Assembly: GCA_037388465.1 (NCBI GenBank)
Contig: JARRKE010000005.1
Coordinates: 5,010-69,009 of the forward strand
DNA from: Gammaproteobacteria bacterium
GTDB taxonomy: Bacteria > Pseudomonadota > Gammaproteobacteria > SpSt-1174
Length of the DNA: 64,000 bases
Reading direction: 5' to 3'
In this document: positions 1-54,428 of the stretch, piece by piece
Position numbering within the stretch: the first letter of the stretch is position 1
How the letters are laid out: each line of letters begins with the position of its first letter
The notes under the pieces: generated by a model
What the model saw: the letters and a program-made list of their open reading frames with translations, nothing else
The model's database searches: none
Told to the model about the DNA's origin: nothing
Position numbers and translations under genes: made by a program

Positions 1-409
1 TCTGACCTGCCGGCGTTTCATGGAGAAACTGCGCCGCCTGCAGCATTCCGCCGGTGACGTCCGTATACGCACTCGGCTTGAGGTGCTTGAAGAACGTGTT
101 CAACTTTTCGCGGAACTCACGCTTTTGCGCATTCGCGACCGAGGGACGGTCGTCGAACGTGGCCTTGGCGACCAGCGCCTTCTCGGTGAAGCTGCCGCTG
201 TCGATGCGTGCCACCACCAGCGTATCGCCGCTGTTCAGGATGCCCAGCAGGTAGTTGATGATCGCATTGGCCTTGTCCAGCTGCTTGCTGTAGGTGCCGG
301 ACGTATCCAGCAGCATGTACACGGCACGGCTGTGGCTGTGATTGACACAGCCCGCCGCACTGAGCGTAACGACAAACAGCAGGACCGTTCGAATCAGCAA
401 ACGCCTCAT
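1..409 (-). CDS. VWA (von Willebrand factor A) domain lipoprotein, N-terminal part only; gene runs past the window start
   Basis: Minus-strand ORF starts at ATG 409..407 and translates MRRLLIRTVLLFVVTLSAAGC (lipobox signal peptide), then LLDTSGTYS (MIDAS-like DxSxS motif). No stop occurs before position 1. The start overlaps the upstream stop as ATGA. Confidence 0.55.
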   Translation of the reverse strand, partial: MRRLLIRTVLLFVVTLSAAGCVNHSHSRAVYMLLDTSGTYSKQLDKANAIINYLLGILNSGDTLVVARIDSGSFTEKALVAKATFDDRPSVANAQKREFREKLNTFFKHLKPSAYTDVTGGMLQAAQFLHETPAGQ

Positions 410-1884
410 GCCGCCTTCTCCGCAGGTTTGGCCGCGGTCTTGGTCTGCGGCGACTCGCTGCCCTTAGTTTCCGAAGAGGACTTGGAGGACCGCCACTCGG
501 ACACGAGGTGCTCCACCGCCAGCGGCAGAAAGATGATCAGGTCGTACAGGTGCGTCAGGCTGTTGCCCAGCGTGCGCATCACGCCCGCCAGGAGATGCAG
601 CACATAGGCCAGTCCGCGCAGCAGGCCGGCCATGACCACCCCCATCACCGTGCGCGAGGCATGGATGAATGACTCCAGCGGGATCGCCACGAAGGTCAGT
701 GCAAACGGCAGCACGAAACCCATCACCATCTGGCCGATGGAGGGAATCCAGCGGAACTGGGCCTGCTGAACGACCGTGCCGCTGGATGCGGCCAGCGACT
801 GGGTCAGCGCCTCGTGATCAGCCGCCAGCATGTCACGCATATAGGCCAGCGCGGACTCGATGCTCGCCATGGCCAGCAGGATGAAAAAGGTCACCCAGAT
901 CATGCGCCGCCGCATGCGGTCGTCCAGAGCGCCGATCACGGGGAACAGACGGGTGATGCGCAGCGACTCCATGAGGAACAGGCCCATGGCGATCTCGACC
1001 ATGATGATGACCAGCGCCGCCACATCCGCGGTGCGTACCGAACCGATGTAACTGGCCCCGCCGACCATCTCGGACATGGGCAGGGCGATCAGCTGGAAAT
1101 TGATCATGCCGCCCATGATGGCGATGACCATCACCACACCGGAAATCAGGAACTGGGTCATCGAGGAAGAGGACAGCGTGCGCACCACCCGGTCGTTGCC
1201 GGAGAGGATCTCCTCGTAGTGCGTCATCTGTTTGTCGATTTCGGTGGCGCGCTCGCCGATGCCCTTGATGGTCTTCTGCACCTCGCGGATGCGTTCGTCG
1301 AGGCGGCGCCAATAGGGCAGCATGCGCTTGAGCAGCTTGTGGCGTTCGCCGCTCGCAATGCGGTACTCGCGCGTGATGTCCTGAGTGGACCGCTTCAGGG
1401 TGTGGTGGATGTCCTGCAGGATCCGCGCGATGGTCGGATCGCCGTCGGTCGGGATCTTCGCCACCGCCTCCACGGCATCCAGCCAGGCCGGCGGTTCGGG
1501 CGGCGTTTCGGCGGTTTCGCGGTAATCCTCGTCGATATGCGTAATCTGCTCGGAGAGCTGGCGATGCAGGGCCGGATAGCTGCTCAGGTCACGGCTCACC
1601 ACGGCGTTGATGCGGTGGAACTCGCGCTCGATGATGCGCTCCTGATTCTCGGCCGCCATGGCCAGCAGCACTTCGCGGTTGCGCCGCCCGAGCCGGGTCT
1701 CGGCCAGCCTGACCGAGTGGGCCGACTTGCGCAGCGCGTTATAGAGGACATGACTCAGGGTGCGGATGAACTCATGAGCCGGACGGCGCGCCAGATACAG
1801 GGCAACCAGCAGAATGACCACCCAGATCGACACTGAGAGCGCCATGGAATGCGACCACAGGCCGAGAATTGTCTCCCAGGTCAT
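406..1884 (-). CDS. Integral membrane protein of unknown function: N-terminal TM, ~200-aa coiled-coil region, ~6 C-terminal TM helices, low-complexity K/S/A tail
   Basis: 492-aa ORF in the track. GC-rich third positions on the minus strand. The hydrophobic segments are seen by eye. No P-loop or other catalytic motif is recognised. Confidence 0.6.
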   Translation of the reverse strand: MTWETILGLWSHSMALSVSIWVVILLVALYLARRPAHEFIRTLSHVLYNALRKSAHSVRLAETRLGRRNREVLLAMAAENQERIIEREFHRINAVVSRDLSSYPALHRQLSEQITHIDEDYRETAETPPEPPAWLDAVEAVAKIPTDGDPTIARILQDIHHTLKRSTQDITREYRIASGERHKLLKRMLPYWRRLDERIREVQKTIKGIGERATEIDKQMTHYEEILSGNDRVVRTLSSSSMTQFLISGVVMVIAIMGGMINFQLIALPMSEMVGGASYIGSVRTADVAALVIIMVEIAMGLFLMESLRITRLFPVIGALDDRMRRRMIWVTFFILLAMASIESALAYMRDMLAADHEALTQSLAASSGTVVQQAQFRWIPSIGQMVMGFVLPFALTFVAIPLESFIHASRTVMGVVMAGLLRGLAYVLHLLAGVMRTLGNSLTHLYDLIIFLPLAVEHLVSEWRSSKSSSETKGSESPQTKTAAKPAEKAA

Positions 1885-2074
1885 GTTGCCTCCTAGATAT
1901 AATAGTTTGAATTAATTGAAATTATCCTAACCCGGGCAAGCCGCCCTGGCCAAATACTGGCCTGCTTTTATAGTCCATTCGCCCTATCCGGGTAAACCCG
2001 GAGGGGCTTTTGCACTCCGTCAGTAAAGATGAAACACTTGAAACTTTGATTGCAGGCCGCCCACGGATATCGAT

Positions 2075-3409
2075 ATGGACAGCACCCTGATCACCAACGC
2101 ACGCATTGTCACCGACGGACGCCAATTCGAAGGCGACGTCCTGATCGAAGGAGATCGCATCAGCGCCATCGGCGGCGATCTTTCCGCCCGCACCGCGGAC
2201 AGGGTGATCGACGCGGCCGGGCGCCTGCTCATACCGGGCATGATCGACGATCAGGTCCACTTCCGTGAGCCGGGCATGCCCGACAAGGGTGACATCGCCA
2301 CCGACTCCGCCGCTGCGGTGGCCGGCGGCATCACCAGTTTCATGGACATGCCGAACACCCGTCCGAACACCCTCACACAGGAAATACTGGAAGACAAGTA
2401 CGCCCTCGCCGCCGGGCGCGCCCACGCCAACTATGCCTTTTACCTTGGCGCCTCCAACGACAACCTGGAGGACATCAAGCGCCTCGAACCCGGCCGCGCC
2501 TGCGGCATCAAGGTCTTCATGGGCGCCTCCACCGGCAACATGCTGGTCGACAACCCCGACACCCTGGACGGCATCTTCGCGCACGCCCCGACCATGGTCG
2601 TGACCCATTGCGAGGACACCCCCACCATCCTGGCCAACGAGCAGGCATGGCGTGAACGCTACGGCGAGGACGTCCCGTTCGCCGCGCACGGGCAGATCCG
2701 CAGCGTCGAGGCCTGCTACAAATCCTCCTCGCTGGCCGTAGAGCTCGCGCGCAAACACGGCACGCGGCTGCATATCCTGCATCTGTCCACCGGTCGCGAA
2801 CTGGAGCTGTTCTCCACCCAGCCGTTGGCGGAGAAACAGATCACGGCCGAGGCCTGCGTGCATTTCCTGTGGTTCTCGGATGAGGACTATGCGGAAAAAG
2901 GCGCGCTCATCAAATGCAATCCGGCCATCAAGACCGCCGCGGACCGCGCCGCCATTCTGCAGGGCCTAAAGGACGGCCGCCTGGACGTGATCGGTACCGA
3001 TCACGCGCCGCACACCTGGGCCGAGAAACAAAACAGCTACTTCAAGGCGCCTTCCGGCCTGCCGCTGGTGCAGCATGCCCTGCCGGTGCTGCTGGAACTG
3101 CATCGCCGCGGCGACCTGGACCTGGAACTGATCGTGGAAAAGACCAGCCACGCGGTGGCCGAACGCTTCCGGATCGAGGAGCGCGGGTACATCCGCGAGG
3201 GCTACTACGCCGACCTGGCGCTGATCGATCTGGAAAAGCCCTGGACCGTGGAACGCGACAACGTATTGTACAAGTGCGGCTGGTCACCCTTCGAGGGCAC
3301 GACCTTCCACGCGACGATCGACATGACCTGGGTCAATGGCCGGCTTGCCTGGGCCGATGGCAGACTGCAGCCCGGGACGCACGGCCAGCGGCTGAAGTTC
3401 AGCGCCTAA
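2075..3409 (+). CDS. Cyclic amidohydrolase, dihydroorotase-like (PyrC type I-like; metal motif reads DDQVHFREPG)
   Basis: 444 aa. Contains GMIDDQVHFREPG, a conserved K in ACGIKVFMG, and VIGTDHAPH, the amidohydrolase-superfamily signature. No pyr genes are adjacent. Confidence 0.7.
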   Translation: MDSTLITNARIVTDGRQFEGDVLIEGDRISAIGGDLSARTADRVIDAAGRLLIPGMIDDQVHFREPGMPDKGDIATDSAAAVAGGITSFMDMPNTRPNTLTQEILEDKYALAAGRAHANYAFYLGASNDNLEDIKRLEPGRACGIKVFMGASTGNMLVDNPDTLDGIFAHAPTMVVTHCEDTPTILANEQAWRERYGEDVPFAAHGQIRSVEACYKSSSLAVELARKHGTRLHILHLSTGRELELFSTQPLAEKQITAEACVHFLWFSDEDYAEKGALIKCNPAIKTAADRAAILQGLKDGRLDVIGTDHAPHTWAEKQNSYFKAPSGLPLVQHALPVLLELHRRGDLDLELIVEKTSHAVAERFRIEERGYIREGYYADLALIDLEKPWTVERDNVLYKCGWSPFEGTTFHATIDMTWVNGRLAWADGRLQPGTHGQRLKFSA

Positions 3410-3436: not shown

Positions 3437-4510
3437 TCACAGGCGCGTATAGGGCACCACCCGCCCCGGCCCTTCCTGGTGGGCCAGCAGCATGGCCTGG
3501 TCGGCCCGCTGCATCAGCATTTGCCCGATCTCCACCACGTCGGGCAGCTCCTCCGGGTGTTCGCAACTGGCCACGCCCACAGACACGGTGACGTCGACCC
3601 GCTGACCGTTGTGGAGCAGGACGGGCTTGATGGAGACCTGATCGCGGATTCGCTCCGCCACCCCGGTCGCGTCCTCCAGGCCGGCCTCGGGCAGCAGCAC
3701 GACGAACTCGTCCCCGCCGTAACGTGCATACACGTCGAACTTGCGCAGCGGCAGGGCCATGCGCGAAGCGACCGCGCGGATGATATCGTCCCCTGCCCGA
3801 TGCCCATGGCTGCTGTTCAGCGGTTTGAAGTCGTCGATATCGATGAACAGGAAGGAGATGGGATTCTGCTCGCGCTGCGCGGCCAGCACCTCCTCCTGCA
3901 GACGCTGGTCGAAGTAGCGCTGATTGCGGATGCCGGTCAGCGGGTCGGTGATACCGAACTGCTCGAGGCGCATCAGATTGACCGCATTCTCGATGCTGAT
4001 GGCGGCCATGACGGCCAACCGGTCCAGGAAGTACATACCGGCATCTGCGCTGTAACGGTCCGGATCGGTACTCGCGTAGGCCAGCTGACCTACACGTTTG
4101 TCGCCGCGTTTGAGGGGCAGAATCACGACGCTGGCCAGCGCTTCCACGCCGGGGAACAGCGGGCCGTGAATGAGTTCCTCGAAATCGCCCATGTAGGGCT
4201 CGTGTTCCAGCCCAATCTCGGCCTCATCTTGGGAAACCAGGACCACTTCCGGTTGCGGTTCATCGATCTCGCGGTCGAAATGGCGACGCAGTTCGTGATC
4301 ATCGTCGAGGACCGTCAGGCTGGCCGCATCGATACCGAACTCGCGCGGCACGTCGTGGATCAGCAACTCGAACAGGGAGCGGATGTCTGCGGTGGTCAGC
4401 AGGCGGATTTCCAGCGCATGCAGGCGCTCGAGCTTGCCTTCGTTCTCGCGCACCTGCGCCAGCAGCGTATCGAGCTGGCGCTTCAGATCCTGGTCGTTCT
4501 GCTGCTCCAT
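3437..4510 (-). CDS. Diguanylate cyclase with N-terminal DUF484/GAF-like domain (GGDEF intact: RYGGDEFVVLL)
   Basis: 357-aa ORF. DPLTGIRNQRYF, DIDDFKPLNSSHGHRAGD and GGDEF motifs are present. Confidence 0.85.
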   Translation of the reverse strand: MEQQNDQDLKRQLDTLLAQVRENEGKLERLHALEIRLLTTADIRSLFELLIHDVPREFGIDAASLTVLDDDHELRRHFDREIDEPQPEVVLVSQDEAEIGLEHEPYMGDFEELIHGPLFPGVEALASVVILPLKRGDKRVGQLAYASTDPDRYSADAGMYFLDRLAVMAAISIENAVNLMRLEQFGITDPLTGIRNQRYFDQRLQEEVLAAQREQNPISFLFIDIDDFKPLNSSHGHRAGDDIIRAVASRMALPLRKFDVYARYGGDEFVVLLPEAGLEDATGVAERIRDQVSIKPVLLHNGQRVDVTVSVGVASCEHPEELPDVVEIGQMLMQRADQAMLLAHQEGPGRVVPYTRL

Positions 4511-4519
4511 CGCCCTGCC

Positions 4520-5449
4520 TTATTCCGCCAGATCCAGCTCGCGAACCAGCCGCATGCCGAGGTTCACGTCGAGTTCGTCGCGCAACCGGGTCATGCGCGC
4601 CGCACTGCGCGCCTGGGCCGCACTGTCGAAATACGACCCGCCCTTGGTCACGATACGCTGCGTGCCGTGCAGCGGCGCCGGAGCGCCGTCCCGGTTGGCG
4701 TTGATGTGCGAATTGGTCCAGGGATTAACGGTGAACTCCCAGACGTTGCCGTGCATGTCGTGCAACCCCCAGGTATTGGCGGGTTTCTCGCCGACCTCGG
4801 CCGCGCGCTGCAGGGGGAAGCAGCGCGGCAGAAACCAGCGTCGCTTCTGCCTGGCCTCCTCGTAAGGGAAGGTGCTGTTGAAATGCGCCTCCTTGCAGGT
4901 CAGCGATGCCCCGAAATGGAAAGGCGTCAGGCTGCCCGCCCGGCAGGCATACTCCCATTCCGCCTCGGTAGGCAGGCGATAGCGCTGGCCGGTCTGCTCA
5001 CTCAGCCAATCGGCATACAACTGGGCGTCCTTGAGACGGATGTTCATCACCGGTCGGCGTCCGGAAGACCAGATCAGGTCGGAACGGATCACCCAGCCGG
5101 TATCGAGGCGGAAGCGGTCGAATTCCTCCACCGTTACCGTGTAGCGTCCCAACGCAAAGGGCCGGCCCAGGCAGACCGTGTGCTGCGGATGCTCGCTGGA
5201 CTGATGGCCGAACTCGGTGCGTAACGAGCCCATCTCGAACATCCCCGGCGGGATCATCTGCATCCAGGGCCCGGCGGAACCATCCGCCAGGGTGTCCTGG
5301 AACGCCGCGTCGACGCCGGCGCGCTCCGCCGCCACGGCTTGCCACGCCAGCAGGGCCGCCTCGTCCATATCGTGGACATAGGGCAGATCCGGTTCGCAGG
5401 GAACCTTCGATTGTCGTGCTTCCATCATCGACCGCTCAAACCTCGTCAT
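4520..5449 (-). CDS. Formylglycine-generating-enzyme (FGE-sulfatase/SUMF1) family protein
   Basis: 309 aa. Contains LHDMHGNVWEF and RLPTEAEWEYA, characteristic of the FGE fold. It ends 9 nt upstream of the GGDEF gene on the same strand. Confidence 0.85.
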   Translation of the reverse strand: MTRFERSMMEARQSKVPCEPDLPYVHDMDEAALLAWQAVAAERAGVDAAFQDTLADGSAGPWMQMIPPGMFEMGSLRTEFGHQSSEHPQHTVCLGRPFALGRYTVTVEEFDRFRLDTGWVIRSDLIWSSGRRPVMNIRLKDAQLYADWLSEQTGQRYRLPTEAEWEYACRAGSLTPFHFGASLTCKEAHFNSTFPYEEARQKRRWFLPRCFPLQRAAEVGEKPANTWGLHDMHGNVWEFTVNPWTNSHINANRDGAPAPLHGTQRIVTKGGSYFDSAAQARSAARMTRLRDELDVNLGMRLVRELDLAE

Positions 5450-49055: not shown

Positions 49056-50177
49056 TTACGGCCGCTGCGCGTAACCCGTCATTTCCAGATAGCCCTGCCC
49101 CGTCACGGCCCTGCCCGCATGACGTCCGGTCGCATCGACGGCCCCTTCCCAGTACTTCACCGTCAGATCGAGCTCCTGGTTCGGAACCATCGCCCGCACC
49201 TCGAGCCGCAGATGCTGCGTCGGAATACGGATTTCCCAGGCGACGGGATACGCGGCCCCGTCCGGGCTTTTCCATACATGCTGTGGCTTGAGCGAGAAGT
49301 CCGCGGCTTTCAGATGTACCGTCTCGCCATTCCTGGTGATGAGCGTGCCCTGACTGTAGGGGTCGGGGGCACCGTCCTTTTGCCGCAGCTGGTACAGCAT
49401 CAGGTCGCTGCCGTCGGAAAGGTGCAGCCCGAACCAGTCCCAACCCACCTGATCGGGCGACAAGGCGCTGGTGGACCACTCCCGGTCCAGCCACACCAGT
49501 CCGGTTACCGGGTACGAAGTACCGCCGACCTCGATACGGCCCTGCGCAGCCAGGCGCGGCATGCTGTAGTAGTACGACGCCTGCGCGGGCCCCTTGCGGC
49601 TCAGGCCGCGATCCCCTTCCAGAACGGGCGGCTTGTCGGGCGTGAGGTCCAAGCGCACGGCTGTGTCTCCATCTTTGGCGTCGAGTCGCCAGGGAAACTC
49701 AGGATTCCCGCTGACCTGCCAGTCGCCCAGCCACACCCGGAACGGTTTCGCCCGCGCGCCGGCAAGTCCCTGTGCGCCCCGTGCGAAACGCTGCCAGGCA
49801 TGAAAGCGGCCCGTCTTTACGTCCGTCACGGCGAAGTGCGCCATGTAAATCTGGTTGGTCAGCCAGCGGTCGTTGCCGACGGGTGCCCGGGGCGTCAGCG
49901 CGATACGGAAAAACGTAAGCTCGAAACCGAAGCGCCGGCCCGCCTCGGTATGCAGCACCCCGGTGTAGTACCACCATTCGTTGCGAAACCCGGGATGAGG
50001 ACCGTGGTCGGCCGGAAAATGAAACGCCCGCGGCGTCCCGATCTGCGCGAAGCCCGTGGTGGGCTCGCCACCCAACGCCTTGCCCAGACTCACGCCTTCG
50101 TCCCGGCCGCTGGCCGGCTGCTGATGACAGCCTGCCAACGACAGTCCCAGCAACAGCAGTGCAACAACCCGCATCAT
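49056..50177 (-). CDS. AttH/CrtC-like (hydroxyneurosporene-synthase fold + lipocalin-like) lipoprotein
   Basis: Start [17 protein letters not shown] (lipobox). Contains GFELTFFR and YWEGAVDATG motifs. The start overlaps the ybbP stop (ATGA). Confidence 0.7.
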   Translation of the reverse strand: MMRVVALLLLGLSLAGCHQQPASGRDEGVSLGKALGGEPTTGFAQIGTPRAFHFPADHGPHPGFRNEWWYYTGVLHTEAGRRFGFELTFFRIALTPRAPVGNDRWLTNQIYMAHFAVTDVKTGRFHAWQRFARGAQGLAGARAKPFRVWLGDWQVSGNPEFPWRLDAKDGDTAVRLDLTPDKPPVLEGDRGLSRKGPAQASYYYSMPRLAAQGRIEVGGTSYPVTGLVWLDREWSTSALSPDQVGWDWFGLHLSDGSDLMLYQLRQKDGAPDPYSQGTLITRNGETVHLKAADFSLKPQHVWKSPDGAAYPVAWEIRIPTQHLRLEVRAMVPNQELDLTVKYWEGAVDATGRHAGRAVTGQGYLEMTGYAQRP

Positions 50178-52642
50178 GCCGACCTCAAGGCCCGGGCCGG
50201 CGGGGTGCGGGCCAGGCGCAGCGCGGGATAGAGGCTCGCCAGCAGGGCGCCGCCCAGTGCCAGCAGCAACGTCTGCCCGAACAGTGGCGCCTGGAAGTGC
50301 AGCAGCAGGCTCCAGCCGAAGGCGCGCGGATTGACCAGTTCGACCAGCGCCCAGGCCAGCGCCGCGCCCAGCGGCAGGGCGATCAGCCCGGCGCACAGCC
50401 CGATCAGCGCAGCCTCCCCGATCAGCAGACCGAACACGCCCGCCGGCGTCAGCCCCAGCGCACGCAGCGTGGCATGCACGCGGCTGCGCTCCAGCAGCAG
50501 AGCCATCAGGCCGCTGAACACGCCGGCGAAGGCAACCAGCAGCACCAGCAGACGCAGGGCGCGGGTCACCGCGAAGGTCTGGTCGAAGGTATGCAGGGCA
50601 TTGGCCAGGATGGCGCGGTTGGAGCGCACGTCCAGTGCCAGGCCGTCCCGCGCGGCCAGGGTACGCAAGCGTTCCTGCATGGCCTGCAGGGTCACACCGT
50701 GGCGCAGGTACAACCCCAGTGTCAGGACCCGGTCGTCCCGCCAGTACCTGGCATAGGCGGCGCGCGCCATCAGCACCCGGCCGGGACCCGGGTTGTAGTC
50801 GTAATACACCCCGACGATGGGAAACGCTCGCCAACCCTGTGCGGTCCGCAGCCGGAGGGTATCACCCGGCGCCAGATGCCGCCGCCGCGACAGGGGTTCC
50901 GAGATCAGTACCGCCCCCGCCTGCCAGCGCGACCAGGCATCGGGCTGCCCCGACTTGAGACGCGCCGCCGGATGGGCGCCGGACGGTGTGCCGATGGCCA
51001 GCACGTCGACCGGTCCGCCGGCGGCATCCACCCGGGTGCGGATACCGGTGTGCAGCGCATCGAGTCCGGGCAGCGCACCCACCTGCCGGACGAAGGCGGG
51101 CGGCAACGCCCGCCCGCCGTCCGCCGAGACATATAAATCGCCGTTCAGGGTCTGGCCCAGCCAGTCGGCCACGGTGCTGCGAAAGCTGTTCACCATCAGC
51201 CCGACGCCCAGACCGGCGGCGACGGCGACCGCCAGTGCGGCGGCGGCCACACCCATGCGGTCCAGCCCGCCGCGCGCCTCGGCCAGCGCCAGGCGTCCCG
51301 CCAGACCGCCGACCCGTCCGCGCTGCAGCAGATCGAGCACCCGCCCGACCAGCCAGGGCGTCGCCAATGCCGCACCCAGAATGAACAGAAAAATCCCGGC
51401 GAACACCGGCACCAGTCCTGCCATCAGGGTCAACAGGCCGGCCGCCAGCATGCAGGCCACACCCAGCAGGGCGAACTGCGGGGCGCGGCGCACAGCCTGC
51501 CGCGCCAGACCGGCTTCCTCGCCGGCCCCGCGTGGAGGCCAGCCCGCCGCTTCCCAGGCCGGCGGCAGCGCCGCAAGCACGGCCGCCGCCACGGCCAGCC
51601 CCACGCCGCCCAGCCACAATGCCGGACCGGGATACAGGCGGCGCACGGTCAACCCGAAATACAGGTCGTTGATGGTGCGCGCGATGAGATCGAGCAGCCC
51701 CTGGGCCAGTCCCAGGCCCAGAGCGCTGCCGGCCAGGCCACCGACGATGCCGAGCAGTCCGGCTTCGGCCAGCAGGGCGGCCAGCACCATACGCCGCGAC
51801 ACGCCCACCGCCCGCAGGCGGGTGACCGTGCCCTGGCGCTGCAGCACCGCGAAACGCAGGGTGTTGAAGATCAGGAACCCGCCCACCAGCAACGCCAGCA
51901 GGCTCAGCGCGAACAGGTTGAGACGAAACGCGCCGGTCAGCGCCCGCGCGGCGGCCAGCAGCTCGTTGGGGGTGGATAGGCGCGCCTCGGGCGGCAGCAT
52001 CGCACGCAAGGCGGACAGGCGATCCGCCGGCAGCGCGAACAGGATTGCGCTCAACCGGCCCCGCATGTCGAGCAGCCGCTGGGCGGTACCGATATCGCAC
52101 AGCACCACACCGGACAGGGCCGCGTCCGCCGGCAGCTCGCCGACCAGTCGCAGCCTGTACTGCGTGCCGCGCGCCTGCGCCGCAAAGCGTCTGCCCGGCT
52201 CGATGCCCAGCTGCGCCGCGGTGGCCGGTGTCATCAGCACCGTGTCCGGCTCGGTAAGCAGGGCCCGCAGCTGCCCGCCGCCGGCCGGGCGGCCCGGCCC
52301 GCCCAGCGTAGCCTCGGCCAGCGGGGCCACCCCCACCAGCTTCAGGGTGTGTTCGCCGGCCTGAATCCAGCCTTCCACCCGTGGCGCACTGGGCACCAGG
52401 CCGTGGCGAAACAGGCGCACCCACAGCCGTTGGTCCAGACCGCGCGGGCCGCCGGTGACACGCTGCTTGGCGCCCCGGTCCAGGGCATGCACCGAAAGCT
52501 CGAAGCCGCGCAGCGCGCTTTGCGAGGCCAGCTGCACACCCACGACCACCGCCACGCCGAGCGCGACCCCGAGCAGGCACAGGGCCAGCTGCAGGCGATG
52601 GAACCGCCAGTAGCGCAGCAGCGAACGCAGCACCAGGCTCAT
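50174..52642 (-). CDS. ABC transporter permease with two FtsX domains (YbbP-like, MacB-type)
   Basis: ~822 aa with two 4-TM FtsX modules. The start overlaps the ATPase stop (ATGA). Confidence 0.85.
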
Positions 52643-53334
52643 GCGTCCCGGATGCACCCGTCGACCAGCCGCAGGGTACGCGACACCTGCGCCGCGGCAC
52701 GCTGGCTATGCGTCACCATCAGCAGCGCGCAGCCGGCCTCGGCCGCGGCCTCGTTGAGCAGCTCGAGCACCGCATCGCCGTTGCCACGATCCAGGCTGCC
52801 GGTAGGTTCGTCGGCCAGGATCAGCGCGGGACGATGGGCGATGGCGCGCGCGATGGCCACACGCTGCTGCTCGCCGCCCGACAGCTGCGCGGGATAATCG
52901 TCGCCGCGCTCGACCAGTCCGACCCGGGCCAGCAGGGTCCGGCTGCGTTCCAGCGCCTCGTCGCGCGCCCAGCCGTTCAGGTCCAGCGGCAGACGCACGT
53001 TCTCGAGGACGGTGAGGTGCGGCACGAGGTTGAAGAACTGATAGACCAGACCGACATGTTCGCGGCGCAGCCGGGTGCGGCCGGTTTCATTCAGCGACTG
53101 CAGGGAGCGGCCCAGGATTTCCACCCCGCCGGCATCCGGCGGCTCGATGCCGGCGGCCACGTTGAGCAGCGTGGATTTGCCCGAACCGCTTTCCCCCACC
53201 AGCGCCACCCGCTCTCCCGGCATGAGCTGCAGCGAGGCACCGATCAGCACCGGGTGCTCACGTCTGCCGTCGCGGTAGTGCAGATGGACGTCGGCGAAGC
53301 GCAGCGCCGGGACAGCGGCGTTGTCTGCCGTCAT
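52639..53334 (-). CDS. ABC transporter ATP-binding protein (YbbA/LolD-like)
   Basis: [25 protein letters not shown] and [12 protein letters not shown] motifs. Confidence 0.9.
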
Positions 53335-54428
53335 CAGTCGAACAGCGACAACTGCGGGCGGGCGGATGCAGGGACGCGGAAATCCGCGCGGTTGAGCGGC
53401 GCCAGACCGCGGTCCAGGCCGAGCCGGCGGCAGGCGACTCGGCAGCGTCTGGCGTACAGGTCCGCCATCACGCCCATGCCGCGCATGCGGGCGCCGAACC
53501 GGGCGTCGTAATCCTTGCCGCCGCGCATCTGGCGCACCAGGCTCATGACGTGCTCGGCCTTGAGCGGTTCGTGATGCCGCAGCCACTCCTGGAACAGCGG
53601 CGCCACCTCGTGCGGCAGACGCAGCAGCACGTAACCGCCCGCCCGGGCACCGTGCTCCGCCGCCGCTTCCAGCACGCTTTCCATCTCGGCGTCGTTCAGC
53701 GCCGGAATCAGCGGCGCGAACAACACCCCCACGGGCACGCCGGCCTCGTGCAGACGGCGCATGGCCTCCAGCCGCCGGGCCGGGGTGGCGGCACGCGGTT
53801 CCAGGCGGCGCGCCAGGCCGGGATCGAGGGTGGTGATGGAGAACATGACGTGGATCAGCCCGGCCTGCGCCATCGGCGCGATAATGTCCAGATCGCGCTC
53901 GATCAGGGCGGATTTGGTCACGATCGAGACCGGATGACGGAATTCCCACAGCACTTCCAGCAGCGAGCGGGTCAGGCGCGTGCGCCGCTCCACCGGCTGA
54001 TAGGCGTCGGTGTTGATGCCCAGCGCGATGGGGTCGCAAACGTAACCGGGCTTGGCCAGCTCCTCGCGCAGACGCGCCGCGGCGTCCGGCTTGTAGAACA
54101 GGCGGGTTTCGAAATCCAGCCCGGCCGAGAGCCCCAGGTAGGCATGGCTGGGACGCGCGAAGCAGTAGCTGCAGCCATGTTCGCAGCCCCGATAGGGATT
54201 CACCGACTGACTAAACGGCACGTCCGGGGAATCGTTGCGGGTGATGACTCGGCGCGCGGTATCCACGTCCAGGGTGGTGCGCAGCCGCTCCTCCTCAGGT
54301 TCAGGCACGGTCCAGCCGTCGTCCTCGCGCTGGTGCTGGCGGCTCTCGAAGCGCCCGTCGGGGTTGCTGACCGCCCCGCGCCCCTTGCGTGGCTGTGCCG
54401 GGATTCGGGTATCCGGTTCGGTGTCCAT
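53334..54428 (-). CDS. Radical SAM protein, SplB-like/PA0069 family (N-terminus may extend to 54491)
   Basis: KGRGAVSNPDGRFE N-terminal signature and CEHGCSYCF (CxxxCxxC). The stop overlaps the ATPase start (TGATG). Confidence 0.8.
   Translation of the reverse strand: MDTEPDTRIPAQPRKGRGAVSNPDGRFESRQHQREDDGWTVPEPEEERLRTTLDVDTARRVITRNDSPDVPFSQSVNPYRGCEHGCSYCFARPSHAYLGLSAGLDFETRLFYKPDAAARLREELAKPGYVCDPIALGINTDAYQPVERRTRLTRSLLEVLWEFRHPVSIVTKSALIERDLDIIAPMAQAGLIHVMFSITTLDPGLARRLEPRAATPARRLEAMRRLHEAGVPVGVLFAPLIPALNDAEMESVLEAAAEHGARAGGYVLLRLPHEVAPLFQEWLRHHEPLKAEHVMSLVRQMRGGKDYDARFGARMRGMGVMADLYARRCRVACRRLGLDRGLAPLNRADFRVPASARPQLSLFD

Follow-up and report, generated by a model that had tools for sequence, protein, structure and literature searches.

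A conserved two-gene unit pairing an undescribed helical membrane protein with a predicted VWA-domain lipoprotein in Gammaproteobacteria and other bacteria

The window analyzed here is a stretch of 64,000 nucleotides (nt) from a gammaproteobacterium (contig JARRKE010000005.1, positions 5,010 to 69,009), and our study concerns the two genes at its left edge. The first encodes a membrane protein of 492 amino acids (aa) and the second a predicted lipoprotein with a divergent von Willebrand factor type A (VWA) domain. Our results show that the two genes are strictly linked and co-inherited among close relatives, where they form a chromosomal, translationally coupled two-gene unit, and that the membrane protein belongs to a family not described before, for which no relative in fold could be detected. 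The arrangement is a variant of a known theme, a VWA protein with an adhesion site that depends on metal ions (MIDAS) and a membrane partner; it is the family of the membrane partner that is undescribed.

Linkage of the two genes was followed in both directions. In a scan of one genome per species, the best 80 loci with room for a second gene (the parent contig of the window counted in) all carried the VWA gene directly 3′ of the membrane-protein gene; locus L049, where the sequence ends 10 nt past the membrane-protein gene, lies outside the 80. A reverse scan was performed with a VWA profile against metagenome contigs, counting loci with at least 400 nt upstream, and the membrane-protein gene was found upstream on the same strand in 73 of 73. 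Overlapping junctions are recurrent (66 of 122), with an ATGA-type overlap (-4) in 51 and a 1-nt overlap (-1) in 15, and most of the remaining junctions are spaced by 0-24 nt. An earlier reading of the window (hereafter the original prediction) had proposed translational coupling and a functional link between the two genes, and had suggested looking for the pair across genomes; the conserved order and the overlaps bear this out, nor can the VWA gene be called an unrelated neighbor in most genomes. The open reading frame (ORF) of 492 aa on the minus strand, the ATGA overlap, the lipobox and the DTSGT motif all lie where that reading had placed them (Table 1).

The original prediction had also supposed that the operon continues beyond position 1 of the window, as the visible tail of a larger module, and that a MoxR/AAA+ or protease partner might follow. 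Neither idea survived. The window edge cuts the lipoprotein ORF after codon 136, leaving its last 83 codons outside, and the parent contig, L001, a 34-kb metagenome contig from the Joint Genome Institute that matches the window sequence exactly, carries the whole VWA gene, 219 codons long, with a GC-rich stem-loop and then a convergent FabA-like gene after it. The unit on the parent contig is complete at two genes, with nothing more of it left of the window and no MoxR/AAA+ or protease partner. A neighbor survey of ~110 loci with flanking sequence, based on clustering of the neighbors, gave the same picture: there was no universal third gene, only the membrane-protein and VWA genes being constant, and no AAA+/MoxR, protease, NTPase or effector gene recurred. 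Clusters of antisense ORFs that might pass for conserved neighbors were rejected as shadow frames of the two genes. No copy or relative of the pair was found on plasmids or in phages, and its GC content is the same as that of its flanks.

More distant members of the family show how far the pairing extends. At ~34-35% identity, P0300 retains a MIDAS lipoprotein partner, and P0271 retains an overlapping lipoprotein gene that is cut by the contig end after 31 codons. At 27-29% identity, P0355 is overlapped by a gene for a 208-aa lipoprotein of the same size (L169, 5413-6039, plus strand; ~27% identity) with no recognizable MIDAS and no significant VWA-profile match, which may be a degenerate partner. 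No adjacent partner gene was found for P0375 and P0376 (27-29% identity) or for P0283 (~36% identity). In P0244, a single ORF of 685 aa joins the membrane protein to the VWA lipoprotein as a read-through fusion, with the signal peptide and lipobox retained as an internal hydrophobic segment.

The second gene’s product reads MRRLLIRTVLLFVVTLSAAGC... (also MRRLLIRTVLLFVVTLSAAGCVNHSHSRAVYMLLDTSGTY...) at its N-terminus, with DTSGT at residues 35-39. Its signal peptide ends in a lipobox (MRRLLIRTVLLFVVTLSAAG-C21; L-[AS]-[GA]-C is typical among homologues), which marks it as a predicted lipoprotein and substrate of Lgt and LspA. Nine residues, C21, D35, S37, G38, T39, T116, D117, S143 and D144, are invariant in 30 of 30 homologues. 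The MIDAS is complete, with Thr (T39) in place of the second Ser of the DxSxS motif. An AlphaFold model that took the 30 homologues as input (predicted local distance difference test, pLDDT, 87.7; predicted template modeling score, pTM, 0.83) shows alternating strands and helices. When it was compared with the PDB by Foldseek, all 34 matches with E <= 0.001 were VWA-domain entries or complexes with a VWA-fold chain, the top ones being BatA-like 4jdu, BatB 3ibs, ITIH1, Cachd1, CLCA1, NorD, CaV alpha2delta and integrin I domains, with E from 3e-5 to 1e-3 at 12-18% identity. The Pfam VWA_2 profile (PF13519) matched with E = 3.9e-4 and 21.4 bits, below its cut-off of 27, and a minority of homologues have precomputed PF13519 or PF00092 matches. 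Based on the modeled fold and the invariant MIDAS, we class the lipoprotein as a predicted divergent, new member of the VWA superfamily with an intact MIDAS, as its DTSGT motif had first suggested. The domain is small and has no extra adhesive modules, and only 8-12 residues tether its first beta-strand to Cys21. The residue after the lipidated Cys is V, S, G, A, P or T in homologues and never Asp.

Assignment of the membrane protein to a family failed by every route, and the expectation that neither protein belongs to a curated family was confirmed. Pfam and NCBIfam gave nothing near threshold for the 492-aa protein, and no recurrent Pfam family appeared when 91 diverse members were scanned singly. 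Sequence and profile searches of the PDB returned coiled-coil noise and a match to the angiotensin receptor AT1R (E ~4e-4) that covers transmembrane (TM) segments only; we took it as compositional and rejected kinship with AT1R. The AlphaFold model is wholly helical (pLDDT 77, pTM 0.51), and Foldseek against solved structures gave a best E of 0.11, with nothing below 0.1. Homology to a known transporter family, which the original prediction had kept in view, was not found. An internal duplication of the TM bundle, with the motifs PMSE and PLE as counterparts, was considered and rejected, as hhalign finds no repeat. Our literature search found no description of the membrane-protein/VWA pair; what it returned dealt with Bat operons, CglB and alpha2delta. 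All the same, the family is large. Among the candidates scored, homologues of the membrane protein form 6459 clusters at 90% identity, and an exhaustive profile search gave 967 clusters at 50% identity, whose non-fragment members are nearly all 455-510 aa long and match end to end. Homologues of both proteins at 55-66% identity number thousands of clusters. The membrane-protein gene was present in at least 479 genomes of the one-genome-per-species scan, and its hosts, mostly marine and sediment bacteria, include Gamma- and Zetaproteobacteria, Desulfobacterota, Myxococcota, Nitrospirota and Deferribacteres.

The original prediction had described one N-terminal TM helix, a coiled coil and about six further TM helices. 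What was taken for a coiled coil is modeled as a long helical hairpin (AlphaFold helices 33-101, 103-124 and 150-228, with arms of ~70-80 residues each), followed by the membrane bundle. Five TM segments after the hairpin are clear from hydropathy (~243-268, 287-308, 328-348, 381-403 and 413-435), and a weaker sixth at ~441-461 holds the conserved residues D448 and E458. To orient these segments, we tallied the mean number of Lys and Arg residues per loop over the 91 diverse family members. The N-terminal tail has 0.24, the stretch after TM1 2.9, loop 2-3 0.9, loop 3-4 4.3, loop 4-5 1.7 (with 3.4 Asp and Glu) and the C-terminal tail 3.3. The simplest reading of this distribution is that the membrane protein probably has its N-terminus outside, a cytoplasmic hairpin, seven TM segments and its C-terminus inside; R33, directly after TM1, is kept in 97% of the diverse members. 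The predicted periplasmic exposure is small (~75 residues), and consists of the N-terminal tail, the loop at 266-286 (PMSEMVGG...) and an acidic loop at 349-379. A periplasmic hairpin that would reach an outer-membrane VWA protein, with its DEDY/PPxPPxW tip serving as MIDAS ligand, was also considered, and the positive-inside tally speaks against it.

Conservation is high in both parts of the membrane protein. The hairpin carries the motifs RNxEVLL, EREFHR, RDLxxYP, DEDY, PPxPPxW and RHxLLKxMxPYWR. The membrane domain has a conserved set of polar and acidic residues (N262, PMSE272, E297, E306, T311, R325, E343, Q385, PLE404, R411, YD448 and E458). In close homologues from Gammaproteobacteria and Desulfobacterota, with 54-61% identity to the query, N262, P269, E272, E297, D322, R325, E343, R350, D351, Q385, P393, P402, E404, R411, Y447 and D448 are invariant and E306 is kept in at least 90%. 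R33, W134, R181, L185, E306, T311, R325, E404, R411, Y447, D448 and E458 are conserved down to 26% identity. Among the diverse members, position 306 is acidic (E or D) in 91 of 91; D448 is retained by 93% of them, and E404 and E458 by 88% each. The conserved carboxylates and prolines sit within or at the ends of TM helices, and the best-conserved polar residues (E306, T311, R325, E404, R411 and E458) cluster at the cytoplasmic face.

A two-component system accompanies the unit in a subset of the surveyed loci. A response regulator of ~270 aa was found in 39 loci and a kinase-like protein of ~500-550 aa with a HATPase_c domain in 37, both mostly divergent and upstream of the pair. All of these loci are from Gammaproteobacteria, cultured Thalassolituus species and Simiduia litorea among them. 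Weak matches to Trans_reg_C and helix-turn-helix models indicate that the regulator is OmpR/PhoB-like, and its best NCBIfam likenesses (marine_sort_RR, CreB, PhoB and BaeR) are all far under their cut-offs. Two TM helices near the N-terminus of the kinase are separated by only ~23 residues, which is the intramembrane-sensing type; HisKA was not detectable in the kinase. On the strand of the unit, 32 of the 37 two-component loci have a direct repeat in tandem, TTTTCAC-N4-TTTTCAC (period 11), located 64-135 nt 5′ of the membrane-protein gene and up to ~230 nt in a few loci (for example, ~78 nt upstream in L014, ~71 nt in L010, ~90 nt in L032 and ~81 nt in L083). The repeat occurs in only 5 loci that have no two-component system, and its matches number 38 in the upstream zones of ~260 nt versus 56 in the other 2.6 Mb, both strands included. 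It has the form of a winged-helix regulator site and looks like a putative binding site of the linked OmpR/PhoB-like regulator; the neighboring system probably controls the unit directly in these lineages. No homologue of the regulator or kinase was found in the window or on L001, and the TTTTCAC-N4-TTTTCAC repeat is absent from the window’s upstream region.

Other neighbors are specific to certain groups. In Desulfobacterota, 9 loci have an M23 peptidase gene and 7 a bactofilin gene directly 3′ of the pair and in the same orientation, with starts 34-137 nt past the VWA gene (L082, 7155-8584, plus strand, and 8 more loci; the peptidase has 325 aa and the bactofilin 139 aa). Such neighbors may link the pair, in that group, with functions in the cell wall or in cell shape. 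A DUF484-GGDEF gene is found within ~1.5-3.5 kb of the unit in about 8-10 loci, and the window is one of them.

Several characterized systems resemble parts of the unit. The closest in structure are BatA and BatB (4jdu and 3ibs), the best and fourth-best matches of the lipoprotein model (E from 3e-5 to 1e-4, identity 12-13%, TM-score ~0.5), which are likewise MIDAS-containing VWA domains from the bacterial envelope, ~200 residues in size. Bat proteins, however, are anchored by TM segments of their own, and their operon also encodes a MoxR ATPase, DUF58 and TPR proteins, whereas the VWA protein of the pair is a lipoprotein whose sole constant partner is an unnamed 7-TM protein, with no ATPase. 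The MoxR-VWA pairs (NorQ-NorD, CbbQ-CbbO and the vWA-MoxR ternary systems) share the VWA fold with a MIDAS, and the NorD VWA domain is among the structural matches, but their defining AAA+ partner is absent from every pair locus examined. Marine proteobacteria possess a dedicated sortase system (TIGR03784-TIGR03788), in which an envelope VWA protein is under a dedicated OmpR-type two-component system. The best model for our linked regulator is marine_sort_RR, and marine_sort_HK is among the top matches of the kinase, with scores far below cut-off (46 vs 336 bits for the regulator and 40 vs 612 for the kinase). Unlike that system, the pair has no sortase and no LPXTG target, and its membrane protein is not homologous. 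The long hairpin of the predicted cytoplasmic domain recalls ESCRT-III/PspA, the cytoplasmic domains of chemoreceptors and the ZorA tail, a likeness that is generic only. CglB of Myxococcus, an outer-membrane VWA lipoprotein, is a substratum-coupling adhesin that works with the multi-protein Glt gliding machinery (PMC9946355). It resembles our lipoprotein in that a VWA lipoprotein works with a membrane machine; in contrast, the pair consists of two genes only, occurs in many phyla and has no tie to gliding genes.

The closest functional analogy to the mechanism that we propose comes from structural neighbors of the lipoprotein’s VWA domain. CaV alpha2delta, Cachd1 and CLCA1 (which regulates TMEM16A) are extracytoplasmic VWA regulators of ion channels, and alpha2delta is membrane-tethered. 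The alpha2delta subunit uses its MIDAS to dock on the channel, at an acidic residue in an extracellular loop (PMC6231325). Our membrane protein has no homology to the channel partners of these proteins, and the bacterial VWA protein is a single minimal domain; an interaction and a channel activity of this kind are proposed. With this in mind, we tentatively suggest that the two proteins form one inner-membrane complex that is cation-conducting or cation-coupled, with the VWA protein as a periplasmic auxiliary subunit, a reading that we regard as possible but short of probable. The subunits would be made in fixed proportion through translational coupling. The membrane subunit, with its N-terminus outside, would have a cytoplasmic hairpin of ~200 residues followed by a six-helix bundle, and the VWA subunit would sit on its periplasmic face, where an acidic residue from a conserved periplasmic loop would complete the MIDAS metal site; the candidates are the PMSE272MVGG loop and the acidic loop at 349-379. 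Because of the conserved membrane carboxylates, the bundle is predicted to bind or conduct a cation (H+, Na+ or a divalent ion) or to be driven by one. The VWA protein would then be an auxiliary or gating subunit and the hairpin a gating or output element. In many Gammaproteobacteria the unit would be switched on by its own OmpR-type two-component system with an intramembrane-sensing kinase, and this mode of regulation points to a role in the cell envelope. Physical contact, MIDAS docking, retention of the lipoprotein in the inner membrane, ion conduction and the envelope role are all steps that we infer. Loop 4-5 is hinted at as the docking surface, though by a small sample: P0375 and P0376, two divergent members without a partner, are missing most of this periplasmic loop. 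We consider it unlikely that the unit stands for a whole undescribed class of ion-conducting or ion-driven inner-membrane complexes, with a MIDAS-VWA cap as a prokaryotic counterpart of alpha2delta, a new fold, a hairpin gating arm and, in many marine Gammaproteobacteria, its own two-component control.

A number of observations weigh against this mechanism. Its main weakness is lipoprotein sorting, since no homologue has Asp after the lipidated Cys and the lipoprotein would be directed to the outer membrane under the E. coli rule. From there, with its short tether, it could not extend to the loops that an inner-membrane protein exposes in the periplasm, which are short as well. E272 persists in members without a VWA protein, so it does not follow the partner as a MIDAS ligand should. 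In P0283, also without a partner, loop 4-5 has its full length, and the correlation of this loop with the partner is not clean. The fusion in P0244 may be a natural read-through or a sequencing or assembly frameshift. The count of seven TM segments is itself uncertain, as AlphaFold gives residues 400-472 as a single long helix. Neither the sequence nor the fold of the membrane protein is like that of a known channel, transporter or stator, and the cluster of conserved residues at the cytoplasmic face would fit gating or partner binding as well as conduction.

Other explanations of the unit were weighed as well. The unit could transduce signals without conducting ions, the VWA domain binding a periplasmic or envelope ligand via its MIDAS and the hairpin relaying this to the cytoplasm. 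It could then be an accessory sensor for the intramembrane-sensing kinase, comparable to BceAB with BceS or LiaF with LiaS, or a recruiter of cytoplasmic partners. Such a role would account for the strong conservation and many surface motifs of the cytoplasmic hairpin, for the position of the best-conserved residues, for the adjacent kinase, which has no sensor domain in the periplasm and accompanies the unit in about one third of loci, and for the DUF484-GGDEF gene nearby. Yet two-thirds of loci, the window included, have no adjacent two-component system, no known signaling domain (HAMP, PAS, HisKA, GGDEF or PilZ) is detectable, and the conserved intramembrane carboxylates are left unaccounted for. 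The upstream repeat suggests that the unit is the regulator’s target rather than a sensor, although it could be both. Taken together, we regard signaling as a rather doubtful explanation. The lack of Asp after the lipidated Cys in any homologue and the small periplasmic exposure of the membrane protein would also suit an outer-membrane or surface VWA protein that acts as an adhesin or ligand binder, as outer-membrane VWA lipoproteins such as CglB do (PMC9946355), with the inner-membrane protein helping in its maturation, metal loading, export or anchoring and no stable docking at the MIDAS. We find this improbable: the tether has only 8-12 residues and the domain is small, without adhesive modules, tight 1:1 translational coupling is typical for subunits of one complex, and no precedent is known for such a helper when the Lol pathway already exports lipoproteins. 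Moreover, the +2 sorting rule, by which Asp after Cys leads to inner-membrane retention, is established only for enterobacteria.

The hairpin could also be read as that of a membrane-remodeling or -protection factor, similar to ESCRT-III, PspA or Vipp1, tethered by the TM bundle and induced by envelope stress. The regulation of the unit by an envelope-stress-like two-component system would agree with this, but the Foldseek comparison gave nothing below E = 0.1, a PspA_IM30 or Snf7 Pfam match was seen in 0 of the 91 members and the VWA partner has no place in the scheme; such a role is very unlikely. VWA domains are common in conflict systems (PMC7159879), and BatA-like, BatB and NorD proteins are among the nearest solved VWA structures, which would point to a defense system or a MoxR/Bat-type chaperone system. 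This possibility is effectively refuted. The surveyed loci show no recurrent gene for an AAA+/MoxR protein, NTPase, protease or effector, and PADLOC gave no significant match (the sole one, PbeC, had E = 0.016 and 11.7 bits). There is no plasmid or phage copy, the GC content matches the neighborhood, and sequence conservation is very high, unlike that of fast-evolving defense genes.

It is not uncommon to meet conserved pairs of hypothetical genes like these; this one is widespread, strongly conserved and unannotated. Its membrane protein comes from a large, neglected family that neither Pfam nor NCBIfam has a model for, that resembles no solved structure and on which we could find no literature. 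Strict pairing with a MIDAS-VWA lipoprotein gives a concrete experimental handle, and the cultured hosts include Thalassolituus species and Simiduia litorea. For annotation, the two genes can be treated as one conserved unit and as a candidate regulon of an uncharacterized two-component system. If the proposed docking is true, the principle of a VWA auxiliary subunit for a membrane channel would extend from animals to bacteria, and bacterial VWA proteins would not need to work with MoxR ATPases.

The layout of the locus is summarized in Table 1. In the divergent intergenic region upstream of the unit, an AT-rich direct repeat, TTCAA-N4-TTCAA, lies just 5′ of the Shine-Dalgarno sequence, the rest of the region being GC-rich. 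It is unlike the TTTTCAC repeat of the relatives and could be a candidate promoter or operator element; no convincing sigma-70 match was found on the unit’s strand in this region.

Table 1. Positions of the unit, its parts and its neighbors in the window, and of two-component systems in other loci
Feature	Sequence	Position	Strand	Remarks
Membrane-protein ORF, 492 aa	Window	406..1884	-	From ORF list; start ATG 1884..1882, stop TGA 408..406
TM1, residues 14-32	Window	1789..1845	-	Hydropathy; N-terminal tail almost without Lys/Arg, R33 after the helix
Helical hairpin domain, predicted cytoplasmic, residues 33-228	Window	1201..1788	-	
Polytopic membrane domain, residues 243-460	Window	505..1158	-	Hydropathy and conservation
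ATGA stop/start overlap of both genes	Window	406..409	-	TGA 408..406 over lipoprotein ATG 409..407
VWA lipoprotein gene, first 136 of 219 codons	Window	1..409	-	Remainder on L001 11476..12135
Signal peptide and lipobox, residues 1-21	Window	347..409	-	LSAAGC, Cys21; Cys21 invariant in 30/30 homologues
MIDAS loop 1, D35-T-S37-G-T39	Window	293..307	-	Residues 143-144 of the MIDAS fall outside the window
Shine-Dalgarno AGGAGG	Window	1894..1889		7 bases 5′ of the membrane-protein ATG
Direct repeat TTCAA-N4-TTCAA	Window	1907..1920	-	AT-rich
Intergenic region, divergent, carrying the unit’s promoter	Window	1885..2074		Includes AGGAGG and the TTCAA repeat
Dihydroorotase-like amidohydrolase gene	Window	2075..3409	+	Divergent, upstream of the membrane-protein gene
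DUF484/GAF-GGDEF diguanylate cyclase gene	Window	3437..4510	-	Adjoins the FGE-sulfatase-family gene
FGE-sulfatase-family gene	Window	4520-5449	-	Beside the DUF484-GGDEF gene
Two-component system, example	L002	3192-4829	-	
Two-component system, example	L014	5018-5827	-	
Two-component system, example	L083	2446-4760	-	

Rfam was also searched, and no cis-regulatory RNA or riboswitch was found at the unit. An nhaA-I riboswitch was rejected as a sub-threshold match only, inside a coding region and on the wrong strand. Across the 64-kb window (1-64000) there was no Rfam match at the gathering threshold and no tRNA gene. Elsewhere in the window, positions 50000-54000 have a GC content of 0.71-0.72, compared with ~0.63 in the rest. 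An Ala-, Gly- and Leu-rich ORF of 827 aa (50174..52657, minus strand) looks by eye like an FtsX/MacB-type permease of an ATP-binding cassette (ABC) transporter, and in the ORF beside it (52639..54039, minus strand) the C-terminal part resembles an ABC ATPase, also by eye. This high-GC stretch looks ordinary and not like a foreign island.

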